Assembly: GCF_003072485.1 (NCBI RefSeq)
Contig: NZ_CP025989.1
Coordinates: 390,001 to 422,000, forward strand
Direction: 5' to 3'
From: Candidatus Fokinia solitaria
Lineage (GTDB): Bacteria > Pseudomonadota > Alphaproteobacteria > Rickettsiales > Midichloriaceae
DNA length: 32,000 bases
Both the position numbers and the translations under genes were made by a program. Positions 162 to 16,098 of the stretch are shown here, one piece after another. The notes below the pieces were generated by a model, which worked only from the letters and a program-made list of their open reading frames with translations, was not told the origin of the DNA and did not search any database. Numbering within the stretch: the first letter of the stretch is position 1; each line of letters opens with the position of its first letter.

Positions 162-235
162 TATAAATATCAATCTAATATGTTGTTATATAGTATATGC
201 AAGGAAAAAATAATAGTCAATTGATGGAAGTATTG
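130..235. repeat. Copy A of a ~100-bp duplicated segment (5' end of small minus-strand gene + 35-bp divergent spacer + first codons of the large plus-strand gene)
   Basis: By-eye alignment with 2940..3035: ttagtattat(c/t)tttat...cattat...tatatagtatatgc(ttc)aaggaaa..taat(a/g)(g/a)tcaa. Boundaries approximate. Confidence 0.7.
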
Positions 236-2227
236 CTCAAGGATGAAGCTGCTTTTCGGCAGTTAGCTGAGCAGAATGATGACAATCTTGCAGGAATAGC
301 AGGAAAATTCGTATACCAGCTAGATTATGAAGCGTATCATTCTTTGTTCTATCGTAGCCTTGTGCACTTTATATCGCATAATGAGACACTTAAGCACTAT
401 CGAGATATGGTATTGGAGGCGCAGAAGTATGGACTACCAATCGAGACAGTAGAGAGATTAAAAGCATCACATGAGGAAAAAAAAGGAGAATTCATAAAGC
501 GATATAATGATCAATTAAACTACATCAGAGAAAAAGAAGTAAGTAATGTATTAAAGGAGAATAGAACACTTCTCGAAATAGCGCTAAAAGAAAATAATGA
601 AGATAAAGATTTTTTAAAAGCGCTATTTACAGCATTATCAGCTAATAACCGCCCTCATGTTATTACTCTTGCTCCTCTCAGAATGAATATTCGTGGAGGT
701 TTTTATAACTTACGAAATGATTCGATTACTCTATTTCAGGATGATTCGCGATATAGATCTCATTATACAGTGTCTACCCTTGTGCATGAACTTATGCATA
801 GATTCGCTTACTGTTACAATGGGGCAGAATTGGTAATAAAGAGAGAGAAAATGGTTGAAGACTTTTTAAACCAATTTCCACCTTCGCTTCATTTTGTGAT
901 ACTTAAGAAAATGGCGGATGACTTTGCAATATTGACTGATAAGATGATATCTCAACATTATGTTGATAAAGTAGAAGAACAGGATAACTTGAAAGATAGA
1001 AAAGAGCATTTTATTGGGCACATTATGGGCGAGGTAGCGACGAGAGTATATGACTTAGTTCGAGACAGAGCTCAAGGTATAGATCAGACTGGGTTTCCTG
1101 TTACAGTAGAGGTAAGAAAGTTCTTTCAAGAGGTAGTGAAGAGCGAAATATCAGCATTTGAGAAGTATGGTATAACAAAAGATTGGCAGGATCAAATGAA
1201 GAGTTTTGCGGCTCGAGGAGCGGCGATGGATGCCTCTATTACTGCTATAATAACTTCTAGTCAATATTGTACAATAAATGAGGCTGCTTTGATGCAAATG
1301 TTAGTGGATATCGATCAATACGGCAGCCAGATACACAAAAAAGATCCGAAATTCACAATTATGCTCGAGTTAGAGCACAATGCTGTAAAAGGGATACTCT
1401 CTATAAAAAAGAAAGAATTTCAGGAAAATATTAACAATTATGAGCAACTGATAAATTTGTCGCAAGGAATAAGAAAGCTTGAAAAAGCAGTATCTAAAAT
1501 GATTTGTGCAAAAGAAGTAGGGAATTTTCGGAACTTAAAGGAGAAAATCGACAAAAGTATAATGACTGCTTTCGAAAAATTTTCTGATGAAAAAAATGAT
1601 TTTGTAGCTCTGATAGATCTTTTAGGAGGAATAAAGAGCTTTGCAACGATCTCTCAAGATGATAGTCTGAAGAAAACACTCAACTCTTATGAGAGAAAAG
1701 TAACGACAAAGCTTCAAGGTAATAGTAACATTCCACAATTTCTTGGCGCAGATATAAAAGCGTATATTGAAAAAATAACACAGTCTTTGGAAAAAATGAA
1801 TGCTAAGGAAGATTTGGAAAAAGCGGCAAAAGATCTGGAAGACAGGTACGTAAAGTGTTCGCACAGACTTGCTACACTTCTTTCGTGCAACAGCGAAATG
1901 TTTACTGACATAATAATGGAAGTGCAAGATAAAAGTCGTAATGCGTGCTATAATCTATTAGGCGAGATAGAGCGTAAAAAGAATACGTTTGTAGTACAGC
2001 AACAGCAATTCAATGAAGAGCAGCAACAGTCACCTCGGTCGCAACAACAGCAGACGCAGCAACAGCAGCAGATAGAGAGCGTACCAGAGGAAGTGCTATA
2101 CCGAGTAGCAAATAGCTTCAGCACAATCCAACAAGCAGCAACAGAAGGAGCAATCACAACAGCCGCAGGGAGTCAGAAAGTAGTGCAAAATGACAGCAAC
2201 AAGAGTCCAGGAGGAAGGCGCCAATAG
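197..2227 (+). CDS. Hypothetical 676-aa protein with HExxH zincin-like motif, K/E-rich helical body, poly-Q tract and basic C-terminus (candidate secreted metalloprotease-like effector)
   Basis: Long uninterrupted ORF from ATG. STLVHELMHRF at aa 193-203 (HELMH = nt 785..799). Q-tract at aa 601-625. Ends in GGRRQ. No family recognised beyond the motif. Confidence 0.8.
   Translation: MQGKNNSQLMEVLLKDEAAFRQLAEQNDDNLAGIAGKFVYQLDYEAYHSLFYRSLVHFISHNETLKHYRDMVLEAQKYGLPIETVERLKASHEEKKGEFIKRYNDQLNYIREKEVSNVLKENRTLLEIALKENNEDKDFLKALFTALSANNRPHVITLAPLRMNIRGGFYNLRNDSITLFQDDSRYRSHYTVSTLVHELMHRFAYCYNGAELVIKREKMVEDFLNQFPPSLHFVILKKMADDFAILTDKMISQHYVDKVEEQDNLKDRKEHFIGHIMGEVATRVYDLVRDRAQGIDQTGFPVTVEVRKFFQEVVKSEISAFEKYGITKDWQDQMKSFAARGAAMDASITAIITSSQYCTINEAALMQMLVDIDQYGSQIHKKDPKFTIMLELEHNAVKGILSIKKKEFQENINNYEQLINLSQGIRKLEKAVSKMICAKEVGNFRNLKEKIDKSIMTAFEKFSDEKNDFVALIDLLGGIKSFATISQDDSLKKTLNSYERKVTTKLQGNSNIPQFLGADIKAYIEKITQSLEKMNAKEDLEKAAKDLEDRYVKCSHRLATLLSCNSEMFTDIIMEVQDKSRNACYNLLGEIERKKNTFVVQQQQFNEEQQQSPRSQQQQTQQQQQIESVPEEVLYRVANSFSTIQQAATEGAITTAAGSQKVVQNDSNKSPGGRRQ
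1997..2071 (+). repeat. Imperfect CAG/CAA trinucleotide tract encoding QQQQFNEEQQQSPRSQQQQTQQQQQ
   Basis: Read directly: cagcaacagcaa...cagcaacag...caacaacagcag..cagcaacagcagcag, in frame in the 197..2227 ORF. Confidence 0.85.
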
Positions 2228-2452: not shown

Positions 2453-2971
2453 TTAGTCAATACTATCAGAATCGGAGTAATGCATCGCACTGTTATCATG
2501 AATTTCGCTATGTGGAGCCGCGCACTGACTTTGTTCAGGACTTGGTGCAGCAACTTGCTGTTGTTGTAGATGATTCGATGTAACATGATGTGGAGTTGCT
2601 TGATTCTGCAGCATCATCTGCGCTTCCTCCATGAAAATTGGCACCGCTATAGAACGTATTGCATCATGCACATGTCGATTGAATAGCATATAATCAGGCA
2701 GATATGGTGCTTCACCAACAAGAGTATGTCGTAACTTCTCAACAACTCTATCTAAGTCGCGAGAAGAAGTGAGGGTAGGAAATTTTTTTATTAACTCCAT
2801 TCGAGGTACATTTCCATTCTTGTGGAGGAAGAATTTTAATATATCAGGAGCAAGAGGTAAAATTATCTCGCAATATTCGTGAATAACTTCTCGCGTTATA
2901 TCGCTATTGAAGAAATCTTCATTGCTTTTGAATTTATCTTCATTGCTTTTAGTATTATTTTTATTTAACAT
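2453..2971 (-). CDS. Hypothetical 172-aa protein: winged-helix-like N-terminal half, Q-run plus acidic/Ser C-terminal tail
   Basis: ATG-initiated ORF. It has a paralogue at 1..161. Segment ILKFFLHKNGNVPRMELIKKF...RDLDRVVEKL resembles a wHTH by pattern only. Tail is HLQQQQVAAPSPEQSQ...YSDSDSID. Confidence 0.75.
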   Translation of the reverse strand: MLNKNNTKSNEDKFKSNEDFFNSDITREVIHEYCEIILPLAPDILKFFLHKNGNVPRMELIKKFPTLTSSRDLDRVVEKLRHTLVGEAPYLPDYMLFNRHVHDAIRSIAVPIFMEEAQMMLQNQATPHHVTSNHLQQQQVAAPSPEQSQCAAPHSEIHDNSAMHYSDSDSID

Positions 2972-3035: not shown

Positions 3036-3287
3036 TCAAGAAAAAGAGAAAAAGGTATTAGTGCAATACATATAATCCGCTGTTTTGATAACGAATTACT
3101 AGATACATGGCAAGAAGTGAGATTTACCGCTGATAATTGTAGAATCAATGATTTAAAGCATTTATGCAGCGAAAACTCTTTCTAATGCGCAAAGCAATAG
3201 TCTTAATAATATGATAAAATGTTGATTATATAACCTTTAAGTTATAACATCATAAGCTACGTGTGTTTATAGATTCATGCTTTGTAT

Positions 3288-3755
3288 ATGCAAAGGTTCT
3301 TGATTACGCAAAAAGGTTATAATGCTTTAAAAGAAGAGCTTCATCGTCTTAAGACAATAGATAGAGTATCTATAGTTGCGGCAATTTCAGAAGCAAGATC
3401 TCATGGCGATCTTTCTGAAAATGCGGAATATCACGCCGCTATTGAAAAGCAGAGTATGATAGAAAGTAAGATAGCTGATCTAGAAAGTAAGTTTAGTCGC
3501 GCTGAAGTTATAATACCTAACACTGAGACTGACGTTATCAGATTTGGTGCTACAGTGGAGCTTGAAAGCGAAGATACACCTAAGGTAAAGATGAGATATA
3601 CTATTGCTGGAAATTATGAAGCGGATCCGGAAAAAGGAGTAATATCCGCCTACTCACCTGTAGGTAGATCCATGATAGGTAGAGTAGTTGGAGATGATAT
3701 TATGATAAATGAGCGCGTATATATTGTGACTAGTGTATTATATATTACGGATTAA
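3288..3755 (+). CDS. greA: Transcription elongation factor GreA
   Basis: Size (~155 aa) and motifs: ITQKGYNALKEELHRLK, AISEARSHGDLSENAEYHAA, C-terminal SPVGRSMIGRVVGDD. The track start at 3282 is TTG. ATG at 3288 gives the usual N-terminus. Confidence 0.9.
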   Translation: MQRFLITQKGYNALKEELHRLKTIDRVSIVAAISEARSHGDLSENAEYHAAIEKQSMIESKIADLESKFSRAEVIIPNTETDVIRFGATVELESEDTPKVKMRYTIAGNYEADPEKGVISAYSPVGRSMIGRVVGDDIMINERVYIVTSVLYITD

Positions 3756-6161
3756 TTGCGTTGACTTAGTATCTGATTTTTTCAGTATAATTCTGCTAGG
3801 TTGTGCCGCTATCTGCTGCTGTCTCACGCGGAATTTATACATGCTTCTTATCTTGTTATAAGTAAGAGTAGCGATTGCGGCGGTAGCAACACCAGCAGCA
3901 GCTATTTTAGTAAATGTAGCGACAGCAACTAGTACAGCAGAAGCAGCAGCAGCTTTTACGGCAATTTTTCGTGATGCGCGATCGAAGATCTTTTCAGGAT
4001 TTTCTTCTCCTTCCAACAATTTATCGTACATTTTAGTCTTTGCAGATTTCTCTGCTACTTCTTTGCTAACTGCTGTGATAGCAAGTAAGCTTCCTGTGAG
4101 TTCGGTATTACCTCCTAATGCCTTTTGCGCAAGGGATGATACTGCGCAGTACAATGCGAGTTTTGCTGTATAATGTCCGATATTGTTGGCTACTTCATTA
4201 GCTACAGCGGCAACAATAATTGCTTTTTCTTTGTCTCCTATTTCTTTAGAATTGTATCTCGCTTGGTATGCTTTTACCGCAAGTCCTGCAAGTATAGCTG
4301 TAGCTTTTCCTAATGTACCGATGCCAATTTTATTAGATGTTTCATGAATTACCCCTACTGTTGCGGCAGCATCTAATGTTTGAGAAGTTTTTTTAGCATA
4401 ATCATATAATTTCACTAACTTCTTCCTTTTGTCTAAATCCTTATATTCTGAAATAATGCCTTTGTCCTTGATTGCACTCTTGAGTCTTTTGTGCAATTTA
4501 AGCGCGAGAGTATCTTGCTTTTTGAGCGATACAGTAGCCTTTTTATCGATAGTAGGAGCTAGAATCCCCATTCCCATATCGGTACTACCGATCTCTATCT
4601 TACTATCTATTCTGTTACTTTTATCTATGTTTACAAGTTGCATATTAGAATCTTGTGCTTGAAAAGCGCCAAAGGTACATTTTTGAAATTTTCCACACTG
4701 CATCTTAGTATCTTTGATCTGAATACTATCGGCCTTTACAGATATAAATGAAGAACTTGGTACAAGCGAGTCTAAGAATGTTATGTTTTTTGCCTTCACC
4801 TTATTGAATTTCATAGGAAGTGCAGAGTTCTTGAACTCAATTTTATTACCAATACAATTTGTAAACCGTAACCGTCCGCCCTCTTCCGGTAATTGACTGA
4901 AAAGCTCTTCTGTAAGCGAATCAACCTTTTCTTTTAGAAATGGCTTTTCTTGTGCATCCAAGAAAACATCATCACTTTGTACACTGAGAAATATGTCGCC
5001 ATCCTTATTTATTGTCGCGTCTTCAATAGATGCGCTATGCTCAATTTTCCTTGTGATATCGTCTTTTATGCATTTCTTTGCTTCATGATCAATTGTATTT
5101 CTACAATCGATAAACTTTACAGCGCCGAATTTCTTCGTCACTTCAATATCATTTAAGAATATACAGTTTTCAAATACTGTTTCTTTATTATTTTCTGCAT
5201 CAGCGCCAAGTATATGCGTATTTAGAAATATGCAATTCTTATAAGTTTTTCCCTGTTCTATTTCATCTTGAATTGAATATTGCGTTTTAGGCGCGATATC
5301 TTCTTGTTTCTCTTCTACGTATTGTAATTGCGCTTTCCTTATATCATTTTCAGCAAGCACAAGTTCAGTCTTTGCCGTATTATATGCTTGCATCACGTCT
5401 AATAATCGTTCTGATACTTTATTTGATGTATTAATGCTTTTTATAGTGCTTTGCGCATCAAACAATATTTTCATTTCTTCAGCAGACATATCTTTTTCTA
5501 CGATCTTTTGAAAATGATGAGGATCAGTATTATTCTGTGAATTTGTTATACTCCATAATTCTTCTAGGCATTCTGCGACATTTTTCCTTTTTTCTTCTAC
5601 AGCTTTATGATGTCTTTTTCGTAGATCTTCATCAAAAATCCATTCTGGTGAAGCTTTTTGTTTGGCATCGAATGTTGTAGCAGAGAATAATTCTTCTTTT
5701 GAAATTTTAACCCTTGCTTCTCCTACAATTAGATTTTTCACCCCTTCTCTGAAATTTTTGAACGCTCCTCTAAATCCTTGATTTTGCGCTACTACATTAT
5801 TTTGATTATTTAATTCAGGCAAGGAGGGGAAAGATGCTTTTTCATGAATATTAAAGAGATGATGTTTATCGCTAGATGGTGAATCTATAATTGCGCCGGA
5901 AAAATCAGAATCTGGAAAAGCACAATTGGTAAAGTGAGAATTTCGAAAGCGAGTGCCATCGAATTGACAATTTCTAAATACAGAAGTCGCGCAATGTAGA
6001 TTTTTTATTACACAACCAGAGAAATCTATGTCGCTCAATATTTCCTCTTTTATCTGTCTTCCACCATTAAATTTTTGAAAATCTATCTCTTTCTTACCAC
6101 TTTGAAGCGCCTCTTCTATGAAGAGATGTAACTCGCTTTTTTTGATGTTATTCTTTTGCAT
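3738..6161 (-). CDS. Hypothetical 807-aa protein: N-terminal pentapeptide-repeat block, further degenerate beta-helix-like repeats, Ala-rich hydrophobic/amphipathic C-terminal ~200 aa
   Basis: aa 45-94 read as ten consecutive pentads with F/I/C at the central position (IDFSG CVIKN LHCAT SVFRN CQFDG TRFRN SHFTN CAFPD SDFSG AIIDS; nt 5880..6029). C-terminus contains AILAGLAVKAY, AIIVAAVANEVANNIG, AAAASAVLVAVATFTKIAAAGVATAAIATL. Confidence 0.8.
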   Translation of the reverse strand: MQKNNIKKSELHLFIEEALQSGKKEIDFQKFNGGRQIKEEILSDIDFSGCVIKNLHCATSVFRNCQFDGTRFRNSHFTNCAFPDSDFSGAIIDSPSSDKHHLFNIHEKASFPSLPELNNQNNVVAQNQGFRGAFKNFREGVKNLIVGEARVKISKEELFSATTFDAKQKASPEWIFDEDLRKRHHKAVEEKRKNVAECLEELWSITNSQNNTDPHHFQKIVEKDMSAEEMKILFDAQSTIKSINTSNKVSERLLDVMQAYNTAKTELVLAENDIRKAQLQYVEEKQEDIAPKTQYSIQDEIEQGKTYKNCIFLNTHILGADAENNKETVFENCIFLNDIEVTKKFGAVKFIDCRNTIDHEAKKCIKDDITRKIEHSASIEDATINKDGDIFLSVQSDDVFLDAQEKPFLKEKVDSLTEELFSQLPEEGGRLRFTNCIGNKIEFKNSALPMKFNKVKAKNITFLDSLVPSSSFISVKADSIQIKDTKMQCGKFQKCTFGAFQAQDSNMQLVNIDKSNRIDSKIEIGSTDMGMGILAPTIDKKATVSLKKQDTLALKLHKRLKSAIKDKGIISEYKDLDKRKKLVKLYDYAKKTSQTLDAAATVGVIHETSNKIGIGTLGKATAILAGLAVKAYQARYNSKEIGDKEKAIIVAAVANEVANNIGHYTAKLALYCAVSSLAQKALGGNTELTGSLLAITAVSKEVAEKSAKTKMYDKLLEGEENPEKIFDRASRKIAVKAAAASAVLVAVATFTKIAAAGVATAAIATLTYNKIRSMYKFRVRQQQIAAQPSRIILKKSDTKSTQLIRNI

Positions 6162-6193: not shown

Positions 6194-6248
6194 AATTGTA
6201 TTAAAATGCAATCGAATTGTAAAGTTAGAATTAATTTATACAATTGTA
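6194..6248. promoter_or_regulatory. Three AATTGTA motifs (6194, 6215, 6242; the last inside palindrome TACAATTGTA) in the AT-rich region upstream of the 807-aa gene
   Basis: Read directly. Function unknown, and short AT-rich words recur by chance in AT-rich DNA. Confidence 0.2.
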
Positions 6249-6601: not shown

Positions 6602-7078
6602 TTACCGCATGTTTAATCTACTACGAGCAAATTCTTCTGTTTCCGGTGTGTCATCCAATACCCAACCACTTGTGAGTAACCTCGTAATGTGTTGCTTGTT
6701 ATATATGAATGATAGAATGAAATTAGGAGCAAAAAAGCCGCTAATAAAGTATAGTAGAACTATACTAAGCTTCTCTCCTCGAATTAGAGGTACCCAGAAA
6801 GAGAAGTAAAAGTACGTCCAGCACCAGCCTAATTGAGCAGTTTTTCGAATACCGCTATCCTTATGTCTGACAACGACTGGCCTTTGCTTGAAGACGAAGA
6901 CACCGAGTACTAAAGGAAGCAATGAAAACAGAATGAGAGTGCCACTAGATTCATGACGAAGAGGGTAAAGAAGCTCTTTGATGAGAGTATTAGGAAGTAG
7001 CTGATCGAAAAGAAAAAAAGGAATTAATCCTGGTGAATAAAGAAAGAAGCAGAGCAAGCGGCAGAATTCGAAAAACAT
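6602..7078 (-). CDS. Small integral membrane protein (possibly DUF2628-like)
   Basis: 158-aa ATG ORF with several hydrophobic segments. GWCWTYFYFSFWVPLIRGEK...LLYFISGFF resembles the W-x-W/FxGPxW-LYR pattern of DUF2628-type proteins, from memory only. Confidence 0.55.
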   Translation of the reverse strand: MFFEFCRLLCFFLYSPGLIPFFLFDQLLPNTLIKELLYPLRHESSGTLILFSLLPLVLGVFVFKQRPVVVRHKDSGIRKTAQLGWCWTYFYFSFWVPLIRGEKLSIVLLYFISGFFAPNFILSFIYNKQHITRLLTSGWVLDDTPETEEFARSRLNMR

Positions 7079-7400: not shown

Positions 7401-8000
7401 CTACTCAGATGCCTTTGTCTCTGCTTCTACTGCTTCAGAGGGCGCGCTATTATTATCATTCTCTTCTTGAGGAAGTCTTCCGTAATCAGTTCTATTTCTG
7501 AAGATGTAAGATGCAGATATCCCTCTAGCTGCTGCTATCGCTCTTGGAGATCTACTTTGTAATAATGCTTTCTTAGCTGCCAACAATACAGTGAAAGGAT
7601 TAGTACTACCTATACATTTTGATACAACGTCTTTTACTCCTAATACTTCGAGAAAAGCGCGCAAAGAAGGCCCTGCTATTACGCCAGCACCGTGCTGTGC
7701 TGGTCTCATAAGCACTTTTGTTGCGCCACTTTTGGATTCTATTATATGATGTAATGTTCTGCCATCTCTAAGCTGTACTCTTACCATATTACTACGTGCT
7801 GAATGTGCAGCCTTTGCTTTAGCGTCGGACACCTCATTCGCTTTACCTAGACCAATGCCAACGCTACCTTTTCTATCTCCAACGACAACTAATGCGCGGA
7901 AGGAGAAGCGTCGTCCTCCCTTTACCACTTTCACCACTCTACTTACTGATACTACCTCTTCCTGTAAAGTATCGTGTCTTTGAGATTTAGCCTGCTTCAT
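7401..8000 (-). CDS. rpsE: 30S ribosomal protein S5, with a ~30-aa acidic C-terminal extension
   Basis: VVKVVKGGRRFSFRALVVVGDRKGSVGIGLGKANEV and GAGVIAG...LEVLGVKDVVSKCIGSTNP are canonical S5 motifs. Confidence 0.95.
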   Translation of the reverse strand: MKQAKSQRHDTLQEEVVSVSRVVKVVKGGRRFSFRALVVVGDRKGSVGIGLGKANEVSDAKAKAAHSARSNMVRVQLRDGRTLHHIIESKSGATKVLMRPAQHGAGVIAGPSLRAFLEVLGVKDVVSKCIGSTNPFTVLLAAKKALLQSRSPRAIAAARGISASYIFRNRTDYGRLPQEENDNNSAPSEAVEAETKASE

Positions 8001-11996: not shown

Positions 11997-12629
11997 ATGC
12001 AAAAATGTCTTCTTTTTTCATTTCACGGATACGGCGCGAATGGCGCTAACATGAGAAGTGTTGTTACTTCGTTTATGTATGGCCTATCTGATGTAGATAC
12101 GATTTGTCCGGATGGTATTGCGCCATTTGAAGAAGCGCCTTGGAAGCGTGATGCGCGTATGTGGTTTTCATTACGAAATAGCACTCAGAGTATGATGCAA
12201 GAATTAGCATGCAATGCTGCTTCTGATGTGTTAGCATATGTGCTAGAAAAAGCAAAAGAACATAATGTGCGAGAACGCAATATCATTCTTACCGGATTTT
12301 CACAAGGTGCAATGCTAGCATGGGAGTTAGCTAAGATCTTACCGGAAGTACCGCGTGCTGTTATAGGAATGTCCGGTCTGATTGTAACTCCAGCTAGAAC
12401 AATAGATTCAGTTAGAGCGGATAATATAAATAAAAAAACGTCAATTCTTTTTTGTCATGGAAGTTTGGATTCGGTAATACCACTACAACAGATGAAGCAA
12501 TCCTTGAGCGCGCTAGATGAAAAAAATATAAAATATGAATTATTTATAGATAACGGCGCAGAGCATACTGTAACAGATAGTATGATAGAAAAAATTCATG
12601 CTTTCTTAAAAAGAATTATCGTAACATAG
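11997..12629 (+). CDS. Phospholipase/carboxylesterase family alpha/beta hydrolase
   Basis: FHGYGANG (oxyanion region), GFSQGAM (GxSxG nucleophile elbow), CHGSLDSVIP (Asp), GAEHTV (His). The track start at 11931 overlaps the tRNA, so the first in-frame ATG after it (11997) is used. Confidence 0.82.
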   Translation: MQKCLLFSFHGYGANGANMRSVVTSFMYGLSDVDTICPDGIAPFEEAPWKRDARMWFSLRNSTQSMMQELACNAASDVLAYVLEKAKEHNVRERNIILTGFSQGAMLAWELAKILPEVPRAVIGMSGLIVTPARTIDSVRADNINKKTSILFCHGSLDSVIPLQQMKQSLSALDEKNIKYELFIDNGAEHTVTDSMIEKIHAFLKRIIVT

Positions 12630-12631
12630 GG

Positions 12632-13480
12632 ATGCTTTTACTTGATAAAGAAAGAGTGGTGTTATCGGTATATGGAGTAGATGCGGCTGCTTTTCTTCAA
12701 AATATACTTACAAACGATGTATATAAAGCTTCTTGTGATAATGCTGTATACGCTTTCCAGCTGAGTAATACTGGAAAGATATTATATGATAGTTTTGTAT
12801 ATAAAGAAGGAGAAGAGAGTATAAAGATGGATGTATCAAAAGAACAGGTACAAGAGATAAAAGATGTAATAAAAAAATATGTTTTAAGGAGTAAGGTAGA
12901 AATAAAGGAAGAAGAAAGCGTTGTAATAATAGGAAAAGAGAAAGTAAAACTGAATGATAAGTACGAGTGTATAGGACAAGATAATAAAGTAAGAAGATGT
13001 GTTGTGACGCAGTATTCAGAAGATCCAAGAGGAAAAGGATTAGGATTTAGAGGTATAGGATTGTTAATCGAAGATAAAGAAATTGAAAAGAAAGAAGAAA
13101 AATTTGAATTATACTATAAGAATTACTGTAGAATACTGTTTAAAAGTTGTATTCCATCGTTTGGAAATGGATTTCATTCGAATGAGTTTTGTCCTCATGA
13201 GATAGGTTTTGCAGATATAGGAGTGTCATATGGTAAAGGATGCTTCATAGGACAAGAAGTCACTACAAGAGTAAAATTCTTAGGTAAATCTAATAAGAAG
13301 ATCTTATTACTCGATAATTATCCTCTTGAATTTTTCAATAATTTTGAAAGATTACACATATACTATAAAGAACAGCTGGTAGGTGTTGTACTCGAGAAGT
13401 GTGACGATACTCTGATGTGCTTGTTCTATCGTGACGATCATTATGTTACGAACGAACTTAAGATATGTAAGTTGTTGTAA
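12632..13480 (+). CDS. ygfZ: YgfZ/CAF17-type folate-binding protein (GcvT-like, Fe-S cluster maintenance)
   Basis: N-terminal VLSVYGVDAAAFLQNILTNDV and the signature KGCFIGQEVTTRVKFLGK. Starts 2 nt after the preceding stop. Confidence 0.8.
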   Translation: MLLLDKERVVLSVYGVDAAAFLQNILTNDVYKASCDNAVYAFQLSNTGKILYDSFVYKEGEESIKMDVSKEQVQEIKDVIKKYVLRSKVEIKEEESVVIIGKEKVKLNDKYECIGQDNKVRRCVVTQYSEDPRGKGLGFRGIGLLIEDKEIEKKEEKFELYYKNYCRILFKSCIPSFGNGFHSNEFCPHEIGFADIGVSYGKGCFIGQEVTTRVKFLGKSNKKILLLDNYPLEFFNNFERLHIYYKEQLVGVVLEKCDDTLMCLFYRDDHYVTNELKICKLL

Positions 13481-13542
13481 AATACCAGCATATGTGAGAT
13501 GCTAACCTTACGTGATGTTTATGCATTAATATATTTTTTGGC

Positions 13543-16098
13543 ATGTTTCTGAAATTCCTCAAGCGCTTTTTTTCAAAAAATAGCGATAAGAAGTATATAC
13601 AGAATGCTTATGAAGTGGTTGGACAAATTAATGCTTTAGAGGAAAAATTTCAAAAAATGACCGATGCAGAAATGTTTGCATATGTTCCTACAATAAAGCA
13701 GAAAATTAGCAATGGTTGCGTCTTAAATGAAGTGTTACCGGAAACGTTCGCTCTCGTAAGAGAGGCAGGTGTACGTAGTATAGGAAAAAGACACTTTGAT
13801 GTTCAACTTATAGGAGGAATGGTATTGCACGACGGAGATATAGCAGAAATGCCTACAGGTGAGGGAAAAACACTCGTTGCTACTCTTGCAGCTGTGTTAA
13901 ATGCTTTACTAGAAAAAGGCGTTCATATTATTACTACAAATCCCTACTTAGCAGGAAGAGATTCAGAATCAATGGGGAAAATTTATAATTTCCTTGGATT
14001 ATCGGTATCGTGCGTATTGAGTACTATGAGTAATACCGAGAAACGTGCTGCGTATAGAAGCGATATTATTTACGGTACTAATAGCGAATTTGGTTTTGAT
14101 TACTTACGAGATCATCTGCATTATAAATTGATAGATATGGTGCAAGAACAGCATTATTACGCAATTATAGATGAAGCAGATAGTATATTGATAGATGAAG
14201 GACGTACTCCGTTAATCATTTCTGGCGCTAGTGCAACTGATACCGCAATTTATCAGAGAATAAATGATATCACCTCCCTCCTCACTGCTACAAATTATGA
14301 AGTAGATCATAAAAATAAATCTGTTCAGCTAACAGATGATGGCGCAGAAAATGTAGAAAGTATCATAATAAAACATAAGCTTATAGCTCAAGATAGTAAG
14401 CTTTACGATGCAGAGAATTTGCATATACTTCATCATATTGAACAAGCGCTAAAAGCTCAAAAACTCTTTAAAAGAGATGTAGATTACATTGTGAAGAATG
14501 GCACAGCGATGATTATTGATGAATTTACCGGTCGTGTTTTGCAAGGACGACGCTATTCAGATGGCCTGCATCAAGCAATAGAAGCTAAGGAAGGACTAGC
14601 AATACAGCCGGAAAATGAAATTATCGCATCAATTACACTGCAAAATTATTTTAGGATGTACGATAAAATCGCAGGAATGACAGGTACTGCGAAAACAGAA
14701 GAGCGCGAATTACAGGAAATATATTCTCTTAATGTACGTAAAATTCCACCAAATAAACCACTGATCAGAGTGGATGAAGAAGATGTGATCTTCAGAACAG
14801 AGAAGGAGAAGAATAAAGCGATTGTGAGTGAAATTATGAAAGCGCATTCGAAAGGACAGCCTGTGCTAATAGGTACGGTAAGCGTAGAAAAATCAGAACT
14901 GATCTCCAATTTACTTGAAAAAGAACATATTCCGCACAAAGTGCTAAATGCAAAACATGATGCGCAGGAAGCAGAGATTATTAGTGATGCAGGAAGAATA
15001 AAAGCAGTTACTGTTGCCACCAATATGGCCGGTAGAGGTACTGACATAGAGCTTGGCGGTAAAATGCCGTTAGAAGTTGAGGAATTTGATAAACATAATG
15101 AAGATGCGAATAAAGTGAAAGAACTAGGAGGATTACTAGTAATAGGTACTGAAAGACATGAGTCTAGAAGGATAGATCAACAGCTTAGAGGTAGAGCAGG
15201 ACGGCAAGGCGATCCAGGGCGTAGTATATTCTTCTTATCATTAGAAGATGATTTAATGAAGCTTTTCGGATCTGCTAAATTATCGGTATTTTTGCAAAAA
15301 TTAGGCATTCGGGAAAATGAAGCTATTACACATCCTTGGATCACGAAAGCTATACAAAGAGCGCAGCAAAAGGTAGAAATGCGCAATTTCGAATTAAGAA
15401 AGAACTTGATTCAATACGATGACGTTATTAATAAGCAAAGAAAAATAATATATGCAAAGCGATTAGAGTATCTCACTAGAGGAGATTTTCTAAATGATGA
15501 TATCAATGCTACTATTGCTGCGTTTTTCCAAAAACTTGTAGAGCACTCGTATGATGAGAGTTGTGATGAATTTGATGTTGATAAAATTCAAACTCTTGTA
15601 AGTGAGTTGATAGGCAAGGAATATAAAATGTCGATACAAGATAACCGACATTCTAAAAGCCATTCTAAAAAAATTGCTGAAGGATTAGTGGATTTTACTA
15701 GTGATATCATAGTGAAATTGCGCGAAGAGAATGACGAATTTCTCACTACGATACAAAATACCCTACTTAGTATCCTTGATGCATTTTGGAGAGAGCATTT
15801 GAAGTTTTTAGAGTACTTGAGAATCGGTATCAATCTGCGATCATATGGCCAAAAGAATCCACTGCATGAATATAATATCGAGGCGTTCAATGCATTTCAG
15901 AAAATGAAAAATGACATAAACGACGCTATGGCAGAGAGAATATTTATGATTATTAGATATTATGAGAATAAAGATGCTGCGATGGAGGAGAAGCTAAAAA
16001 CGAGTAATGTCGTAAATAGTGATAGCGGCATAAGACGTAATGCAGAATGCCCGTGTGGTAGCGGAAAACGATATAAACATTGCCACGGTAAGTATTAA
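13543..16098 (+). CDS. secA: Preprotein translocase ATPase SecA
   Basis: MPTGEGKTLVA (Walker A), IIDEADSILIDEGRTPLIISG (DEAD), TNMAGRGTDIELGG, C-terminal zinc motif CPCGSGKRYKHCHG. 851 aa. Confidence 0.97.
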   Translation: MFLKFLKRFFSKNSDKKYIQNAYEVVGQINALEEKFQKMTDAEMFAYVPTIKQKISNGCVLNEVLPETFALVREAGVRSIGKRHFDVQLIGGMVLHDGDIAEMPTGEGKTLVATLAAVLNALLEKGVHIITTNPYLAGRDSESMGKIYNFLGLSVSCVLSTMSNTEKRAAYRSDIIYGTNSEFGFDYLRDHLHYKLIDMVQEQHYYAIIDEADSILIDEGRTPLIISGASATDTAIYQRINDITSLLTATNYEVDHKNKSVQLTDDGAENVESIIIKHKLIAQDSKLYDAENLHILHHIEQALKAQKLFKRDVDYIVKNGTAMIIDEFTGRVLQGRRYSDGLHQAIEAKEGLAIQPENEIIASITLQNYFRMYDKIAGMTGTAKTEERELQEIYSLNVRKIPPNKPLIRVDEEDVIFRTEKEKNKAIVSEIMKAHSKGQPVLIGTVSVEKSELISNLLEKEHIPHKVLNAKHDAQEAEIISDAGRIKAVTVATNMAGRGTDIELGGKMPLEVEEFDKHNEDANKVKELGGLLVIGTERHESRRIDQQLRGRAGRQGDPGRSIFFLSLEDDLMKLFGSAKLSVFLQKLGIRENEAITHPWITKAIQRAQQKVEMRNFELRKNLIQYDDVINKQRKIIYAKRLEYLTRGDFLNDDINATIAAFFQKLVEHSYDESCDEFDVDKIQTLVSELIGKEYKMSIQDNRHSKSHSKKIAEGLVDFTSDIIVKLREENDEFLTTIQNTLLSILDAFWREHLKFLEYLRIGINLRSYGQKNPLHEYNIEAFNAFQKMKNDINDAMAERIFMIIRYYENKDAAMEEKLKTSNVVNSDSGIRRNAECPCGSGKRYKHCHGKY

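Follow-up and report, generated by a model that had tools for sequence, protein, structure and literature searches.

A pentapeptide-repeat protein restricted to the genus Fokinia, tentatively read as an SrfD-like secreted scaffold

What kind of protein is encoded by a gene of Candidatus Fokinia solitaria that opens with a pentapeptide-repeat block and closes with an alanine-rich helical domain, and where would that protein act? The gene lies in a stretch of 32,000 nucleotides (contig NZ_CP025989.1, positions 390,001 to 422,000 of the forward strand), which we call the window and number from its first letter. Its coding sequence, 807 amino acids plus stop codon with an ATG start, occupies 3738..6161 on the minus strand according to the list of open reading frames (ORFs) of the window; all segments of the protein described below are on that strand. 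Our tentative answer is that the product is a Fokinia-specific secreted scaffold, similar in its order of parts to the Rickettsia effector SrfD, with a hairpin that would insert into a host membrane. From the N-terminus to the C-terminus, the predicted layout is a pentapeptide-repeat solenoid, a disordered linker, amphipathic helices, a degenerate solenoid, an Ala-rich helical domain, a two-lobed segment, and a basic tail.

The gene is real, functional, and under purifying selection. Its frame is intact in the ORF list of the window, and the sole other match among 5.8 billion proteins is an 812-residue protein of F. crypta, annotated as "pentapeptide repeat-containing protein." This orthologue is colinear with the 807-residue protein, has the same start codon, and is 58.9% identical. 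Between the two species, the ratio of nonsynonymous to synonymous substitution rates (dN/dS) is 0.22 at a dS of ~1.2 (near-saturated synonymous sites), and the corresponding ratio of proportions, pN/pS, is below 1 across all segments of the gene. The flanking genes greA, rpsE, proS, ctp, and yebC have dN/dS values of 0.02 to 0.11, two- to ten-fold below this. From the intact 807-codon frame, the colinear orthologue, and the two ratios, we conclude that the gene is functional and faster-evolving than its neighbors; a dN/dS raised above that of housekeeping neighbors is typical of host-interaction genes. Identity between the species is highest in the N-terminal repeat block (72%) and in aa 548-732 (70-72%), and lowest in the linker, at 46%, and in the 39 C-terminal residues, at 35%.

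Residues 35-94 (5880..6059) are, by their profile matches and periodicity, a bona fide pentapeptide-repeat block, PRP-I, with ten clear pentads and two flanking ones that would form ~three coils of a quadrilateral beta-helix. A prior reading of the letters and translations (the sequence-only reading) had quoted ten uninterrupted pentads at aa 45-94 (5880..6029), which are present exactly as given; the register of hydrophobic centers runs over 12 pentads, with centers from aa 37 to aa 92. In 2000 shuffles the longest pentad run averages 5.0, and the probability of a run of at least 10 is 0.002. The beta-helix signature that was read into these pentads is borne out by Pfam matches above cut-off, by the similarity to MfpA, and by periodicity. 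PF00805 (27.2 bits; cut-off 20.2), PF13576 (29.2; 27), and PF23894 (32.6; 29) all exceed their cut-offs; of the two families that the sequence-only reading had named for a Pfam scan, PF00805 was thus confirmed, while PF13599, at 32.2 bits, fell below its cut-off of 38. Searched against solved structures, residues 1-100 match MfpA (E 5e-7) and QnrB1 (E 0.002), and also the pentapeptide regions of SV2C and DotG. Hydropathy in PRP-I is periodic in both Fokinia orthologues (period 5, p 0.002-0.005; period 2.5, p 0.0005-0.0015). In the AlphaFold model, the block has a predicted local distance difference test score (pLDDT) of 35-55, and the secondary structure of the model includes, at low confidence, an N-terminal helix that is possibly a cap (aa 8-21, 6099..6140). 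No signal peptide is seen in the hydropathy profile, where the N-terminus is hydrophilic and without a hydrophobic window.

The block is followed by a probably disordered linker (aa 95-177, 5631..5879; pLDDT 21-36), 46% identical between the species with insertions and deletions, at a pN/pS of 0.67. Next comes an amphipathic helical, coiled-coil-like region (aa 178-284, 5310..5630), for which AlphaFold gives helices at 178-207, 227-242, and 248-284 (pLDDT 65-79) and hydropathy gives a period-3.6 signal in the two species (p 0.016 and 0.034). Two further regions had been taken by the sequence-only reading for decayed repeats, and only one of them held up. That one is PRP-II (aa 431-530, 4572..4871, with strands on to ~aa 545), which is probably a second, degenerate pentapeptide-type beta-solenoid. 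Its period-2.5 signal matches that of PRP-I in strength (p 0.001 in both species), and a period of 2.5 is expected from the h-x-h-x-x pattern; its AlphaFold strands have a 20-residue period at pLDDT 55-77. The Pfam matches of PRP-II are sub-threshold (LD_SV2, E 0.001; Pentapeptide_4, E 0.016), and a PDB search gave weak matches only, all of them pentapeptide-repeat proteins (AlbG/McbG-like, E 0.11). Aligned to each other in hhalign, PRP-I and PRP-II give an E of 0.019 across 14 columns, and the match is too weak to be used. The other region, aa 305-355 (5097..5249; 66% identity between species), contains two copies of a ~23-residue "xNCIFLNxxI" motif, and its hydropathy periodicity test returned nothing significant; hhalign matches it weakly to the start of PRP-I (E 0.0009, probability 23%).

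Does the C-terminus associate with a membrane? Residues 548-732 (3966..4520) form, by composition and by the AlphaFold helices of both runs (pLDDT < 50), an all-helical Ala-rich domain that is the second-best conserved part of the protein and has no PDB, Pfam, or NCBIfam match. Its helices have low hydrophobic moments and are not amphipathic. It is followed by an Ala-rich segment (aa 733-768, 3858..3965) that is a candidate membrane hairpin on the basis of hydropathy: 36 residues in lobes of 15 and 16, AAAASAVLVAVATFT - K - IAAAGVATAAIATLTY, with the single Lys as sole charge. The Ala-rich composition claimed by the sequence-only reading is confirmed, at 21% Ala in aa 601-768 and 42% in aa 733-768 compared with 6.6% in the other ORFs of the window. 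Local GC at aa 733-768 is 46%, and 42% Ala in a genome of 36% GC (the window has ~35%) speaks for selection of small residues. Compared with shuffles, aa 601-768 show no enrichment of small-xxx-small motifs (p 0.38). A match of the hairpin region to Oleosin (E 0.2) was dismissed as insignificant.

We scored the segment on three hydropathy scales, taking as true anchors PBP1a and the small membrane ORFs of the same window. Residues 733-768 contain the only Kyte-Doolittle 19-residue window of at least 1.4 in all 807 residues; its maximum of 1.91 compares with 2.3-2.8 for the true anchors and not above 1.8 for soluble proteins of the window. The Hessa 2005 sum is +2.8 for the segment, -3.2 to +0.1 for the anchors, and +3.5 to +12 for the soluble proteins, and the TopPred-like GES score, our own re-implementation, is 1.35 for the segment, 1.8-2.3 for the anchors, and 1.16-1.26 for SecA and PNPase. 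Thus, the hydrophobicity of aa 733-768 is marginal, intermediate between soluble proteins and anchors on all three scales, and the lobes of 15-16 residues are too short for two bilayer-spanning helices. The claim that the last ~200 residues span or coat a membrane was overstated: there is one marginal segment of 36 residues, and the other helices are not amphipathic. A membrane-seeking C-terminus is a reasonable hypothesis rather than a finding. The protein ends in a tail that is strongly basic by composition (aa 769-807, 3741..3857; 10 K+R and 1 D+E, net charge +9). In F. crypta, the tail has 8 K+R and 1 D+E (net +7) at only 35% residue identity with that of F. solitaria. The tail thus keeps its charge but not its sequence, which fits an export signal or a membrane-proximal flank.

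Predicted structures add little confidence. Mean pLDDT is 40 for the full length and 38 for a separate run on aa 548-807, which had two sequences in its alignment. Foldseek against the PDB returned no match at E <= 0.001, and its top entry, the HalA structure 9nyi at E 0.13, was counted as non-evidence.

Outside the PRP block, the 807-residue protein is, by these searches, restricted to the genus Fokinia, because no relatives of aa 100-807 turned up database-wide. With phmmer, aa 100-807 matched only itself among 1.84 billion representative proteins (E <= 0.001), and a full-length profile of the two orthologues returned only a Zixibacteria pentapeptide-repeat protein (E 1.8) from 5.8 billion proteins at E <= 10; the E-value thresholds of such searches would miss similarity below ~35-40 bits. 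A tblastn search of 72,556 plasmids gave no relatives, and a genome scan with the protein as query gave no match. A PDB profile search with the C-terminal domain had no match, and Pfam, NCBIfam, and PADLOC scans of the sub-domains gave nothing meaningful. Within the window and the F. crypta locus, tblastn detected no paralogues, and a self-BLAST revealed no internal repeats. At full length, then, the protein has no family that can be assigned from its sequence, as the sequence-only reading had supposed, and the orthologue survey it had proposed returned F. crypta alone and no housekeeping orthologue. GreA, encoded beside the gene at 3282..3755 (+), is 89% identical to its F. crypta orthologue, and its next best matches, at 58-59%, are generic Alphaproteobacteria and not Rickettsiales. 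These distances illustrate the long Fokinia branch and hence why sequence searches reach so few relatives. A GreA-anchored hunt for syntenic loci in other Rickettsiales found none, the two loci inspected being from unrelated metagenome bacteria. A ProS-anchored genome scan for syntenic loci led to Coxiellaceae, Chlamydiae, and others, with no Rickettsiales among the best 80 loci.

The closest parallel in the order of parts is SrfD, a 957-residue, Rickettsia-restricted "pentapeptide repeat-containing protein" of Rickettsia parkeri (WP_014410824.1; Sanderlin et al. 2024, PMC11258249). SrfD is secreted into the host, as detected by bioorthogonal noncanonical amino acid tagging (BONCAT), reporter fusions, and antibodies; it is found at the endoplasmic reticulum (ER) and binds Sec61 alpha/beta (PMC11258249). 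Deletion constructs define pentapeptide-repeat, coiled-coil, and transmembrane parts: PPR1 at 57-116, CC1 at 126-257, PPR2 at 305-686, TM at 766-821, and CC2 at 848-890 (PMC11258249). In the Fokinia protein the counterparts follow in the same order and at similar positions, PPR1 corresponding to aa 35-94, CC1 to aa 178-284, PPR2 to a block starting at aa 305 or 431, and TM to aa 733-768. Both proteins are large orphans of one genus; both organisms are Rickettsiales that live obligately inside host cells, free in the cytoplasm; and the srf genes of Rickettsia, like the Fokinia gene, are embedded among housekeeping genes. The two differ in family and host, Fokinia belonging to the Midichloriaceae and living in a ciliate. 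PPR2 has ~380 residues in SrfD, whereas the Fokinia counterpart has ~100-240, and where SrfD has CC2 after its TM region, the Fokinia protein has a basic unstructured tail. The likeness is architectural only, drawn from published domain coordinates, with PRP-II sub-threshold on the Fokinia side. Secretion, ER localization, and Sec61 binding are experimental findings on SrfD.

A second Rickettsia protein invites comparison. cREM-4, a pentapeptide-repeat protein of ~950 residues and a candidate rvh type IV effector, co-precipitates with RvhD4, the coupling protein of the type IV secretion system (T4SS), in R. typhi (Lehman et al. 2024, PMC11077975). It occurs in Rickettsiaceae and in one species of Midichloriaceae, Ca. 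Jidaibacter, and is not reported from Fokinia (PMC11077975). Like the Fokinia protein, it is large, with a small pentapeptide-repeat block as its only recognizable feature. cREM-4 and SrfD are perhaps one family; this is our own suggestion and is stated in neither paper. With respect to the setting, F. solitaria is found in the cortical cytoplasm of Paramecium with no vacuole around it (PMC4701390). A vacuole anchor was therefore ruled out, and the vacuole-anchored effector suggested by the sequence-only reading is excluded because the symbiont is not vacuole-enclosed (PMC4701390). The genome of F. solitaria is reported to encode multiple secretion systems and putative secreted proteins (PMC5905368); the T4SS is almost universal in Rickettsiales, and repeat-bearing proteins, including those with pentapeptides, are counted as putative effectors there (PMC10847448).

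By analogy, and taken with the parts described above, these parallels make an effector targeted to an organelle or host membrane the most likely reading, in our analysis, and we infer secretion, membrane insertion, and a host target for the 807-residue protein on that basis. The symbiont would synthesize the protein in its cytoplasm, with no Sec signal. Weak hydrophobicity and a position near the C-terminus would spare the Ala-rich segment from the bacterial inner membrane; it is a single hydrophobic segment, 40 residues from the C-terminus and much less hydrophobic than the anchors of the window, and we count this in favor of the SrfD-like scaffold. Export would most plausibly use the Rickettsiales vir-homolog type IV system, and a positively charged C-terminus is common in type IV substrates. 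In the Paramecium cytoplasm, the hairpin would enter a host endomembrane, and the rigid solenoids with their helices would serve as a scaffold binding a host protein. We regard the protein as a plausible member of the repeat-solenoid candidate effectors of Rickettsiales that carry C-terminal hydrophobic helices.

Several observations weigh against this proposal. The hydrophobic segment is 36 residues long, its lobes are too short for two spanning helices, and soluble proteins of the window nearly match its TopPred-like score (1.16-1.26 against 1.35). A basic flank would be expected just as much if the protein were anchored in the bacterial inner membrane with its tail facing the cytoplasm. Confidence is low in both AlphaFold models (mean pLDDT 40 and 38). 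The TM region of SrfD has 56 residues in two helices, compared with 36 marginally hydrophobic ones here, and the ER localization of SrfD does not need its TM helices (PMC11258249). Database-wide searches with the Fokinia protein returned no Rickettsia protein, a result that speaks against strong similarity only, and the likeness to SrfD, one between repeat proteins, may have arisen by convergence or chance.

The same facts can be read with the protein kept inside the symbiont. It might be tail-anchored in the symbiont's own inner membrane, with a hairpin inserted post-translationally, both basic flanks in the cytoplasm, and the solenoids acting as scaffold or regulator; we consider this unlikely but give it real weight. 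It would account for the missing signal peptide and for the basic residues on either side of a single hydrophobic segment, which fit the positive-inside rule, and stand-alone bacterial pentapeptide-repeat proteins, among them the best matches MfpA and Qnr, are usually intracellular. The surrounding housekeeping genes and a conserved promoter-like site also suit a protein of the symbiont itself, but srf effector genes also lie among housekeeping genes, and so genomic context does not discriminate. Against this reading, aa 733-768 fall far below anchors of the same genome (Hessa +2.8 against -3.2 to +0.1; GES 1.35 against 1.8-2.3), and the gene, absent outside the genus, has a much higher rate of evolution than the housekeeping genes beside it. 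We give somewhat less credence to a soluble protein of the symbiont cytoplasm, in which a helical bundle has the Ala-rich helices, aa 733-768 among them, as its buried core. The segment is marginal on three scales and near the maxima of SecA and PNPase, has a Lys at its middle and lobes too short for a bilayer, and is accompanied by C-terminal helices that are neither amphipathic nor hydrophobic, all in favor of this reading. Against it, 36 residues at 42% Ala with one Lys as the only charge would be an uncommon stretch in a soluble protein at a genomic GC of 36%, aa 733-768 are the single outlier of an 807-residue hydropathy profile, and the conserved basic tail right after them points to contact with lipid or a secretion apparatus.

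A membrane-permeabilizing protein, either a HalA-like channel that oligomerizes through its C-terminal helices or a bundle in the style of colicins or Bcl-2 with a hairpin inserted on a trigger, appears to us improbable. A ~230-residue all-helical C-terminal domain with an Ala-rich hairpin near its end may recall pore-forming colicin domains; there is no Pfam or PDB sequence match of colicin type (PF01024) for aa 548-807, no Pfam match to Bcl-2, and no PDB match for the C-terminal domain, and the model is too poor for fold comparison. HalA is the weak best NCBIfam match (NF051894), scoring 24.7 of the required 250 bits over aa 12-92 only, as well as the insignificant top Foldseek match (9nyi, E 0.13). 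HalA forms a tetrameric transmembrane channel with a cytoplasmic crown in the Hailong anti-phage system (PMC13434031). HalA (PDB 9nyi) joins pentapeptide repeats and membrane helices in one bacterial polypeptide, as the Fokinia protein may, but it is paired with the nucleotidyltransferase HalB and has ~335 residues, the Fokinia protein being larger by a factor of 2.4. The score against HalA falls short of the cut-off ten-fold and covers the pentapeptide block only. No HalB-like nucleotidyltransferase lies next to the 807-residue gene, whose neighbors are greA and a 158-residue membrane ORF, the same as in F. crypta, and a PADLOC scan gave no match. Finally, the gene could be a chance ORF or a decaying pseudogene, for which its orphan status outside the genus is the only support; with the frame, the start codon, and an upstream block kept in two species at a dS of ~1.2 and with pN/pS below 1, this is effectively refuted.

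Among described proteins, SrfD (PPR1-CC1-PPR2-TM), HalA, and SV2 all join pentapeptide repeats to membrane helices, and the architecture is therefore not as unprecedented as the sequence-only reading had it. The best sequence matches to the Fokinia repeat blocks are MfpA, Qnr, and AlbG/McbG. MfpA, Qnr, and AlbG are stand-alone proteins of 180-220 residues with 8-10 coils, whose dimers mimic B-DNA for gyrase, whereas PRP-I has ~60 residues in a predicted ~three coils and is one module of an 807-residue multi-domain protein; this is not the layout of a DNA mimic. The SV2 luminal domain (PF23894) uses a short pentapeptide-repeat block as a protein-docking surface on a membrane protein, but the Fokinia protein lacks its context of a major facilitator superfamily (MFS) transporter. 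Chlamydial Inc proteins have two hydrophobic lobes and a short turn, by which these secreted effectors insert into host membranes. Their bilobed domains comprise 40-60 strongly hydrophobic residues, usually near the N-terminus, and sit in a vacuole membrane; the Fokinia lobes have 15 and 16 residues in a marginal total of 36, and there is no vacuole, so that the segment is not of Inc type.

Two stronger versions of the SrfD-like scaffold are doubtful: that the protein is a diverged true homologue of SrfD/cREM-4, an ancient Rickettsiales effector class, or that its Ala-rich domain is an undescribed module for insertion into host membranes. If the homology were true, the class of pentapeptide repeat, coiled coil, pentapeptide repeat, and hairpin would predate the split of Rickettsiaceae and Midichloriaceae, and in hosts ranging from ciliates to mammals it would target conserved eukaryotic machinery, for example the Sec61 translocon.

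What would each outcome mean? F. solitaria had the smallest Rickettsiales genome known at its description (837 kb), yet it keeps this genus-specific gene of 2.4 kb, and purifying selection in so reduced a genome suggests that the protein is probably important in the Paramecium cortex. As a secreted scaffold of the SrfD kind, it would give a symbiosis without any characterized effector a concrete candidate, and would be a hint that effectors combining a pentapeptide solenoid with a membrane hairpin are recurrent in Rickettsiales. Were it an internal membrane-tethered scaffold, it would be one more lineage-specific orphan. Either way, it is a lead for research on ciliate symbiosis or on SrfD evolution and not a new class of system.

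The genes of the window are mainly housekeeping genes (greA, rpsE, proS, a C-terminal processing protease, yebC, tRNA-Ile, secA, a Mur ligase, pnp, PBP1a, and dnaG), and both Fokinia species have the order rpsE, small membrane ORF, 807-residue gene, and convergent greA. A promoter-like TTTACA-17-TACAAT (6195..6223, minus strand) lies ~34 nucleotides upstream of the ATG. It is the best minus-strand consensus match, at 10 of 12 positions, and falls within a block of ~75 nucleotides that is the best conserved part of the upstream region relative to F. crypta; it is a consensus match only, and such sites are overall not more common than in shuffles. The 3' ends of greA (+) and the 807-residue gene (-) overlap convergently by 18 nucleotides (3738..3755), as they do in F. 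crypta, and no terminator-like hairpin was found between the two genes. Directly upstream of the gene, on the same strand, is the 158-residue ORF (6602..7078, -), without family and with four segments of strong hydrophobicity. It is kept in F. crypta (57% identity, dN/dS 0.26), where it is called 16 residues shorter. The gap of 440 nucleotides between this ORF and the 807-residue gene makes co-transcription unlikely.

On the far side of greA lie two further orphans. A 172-residue ORF without family (2453..2971, -) stands beside greA, and the F. crypta locus (our L001) has two tandem 160-residue paralogues at 12480-12962 and 13205-13687, likewise without family, each ~40% identical to it. A 676-residue orphan ORF (197..2227, +) has an HExxH motif ("VHELMH"), a weak SprT-like Pfam match (E 0.0099), and a C-terminus rich in Q. 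The syntenic 18 kb of F. crypta contain no counterpart, and the ORF may be a species-specific metalloprotease or effector. In the other direction, the window encodes a prolyl-tRNA synthetase of archaeal/eukaryote-like type (TIGR00408; 8209..9717, +), whose best genome relatives are Coxiellaceae, Chlamydiae, and metagenome-assembled genomes of Oligoflexales (55-59% identity), with no Rickettsiales among the best 80 loci; its horizontal acquisition is possible. Between proS and the small membrane ORF, rpsE, which encodes ribosomal protein S5 (7401..8000, -), stands alone, outside any ribosomal-protein operon, an arrangement that is the same in F. crypta.

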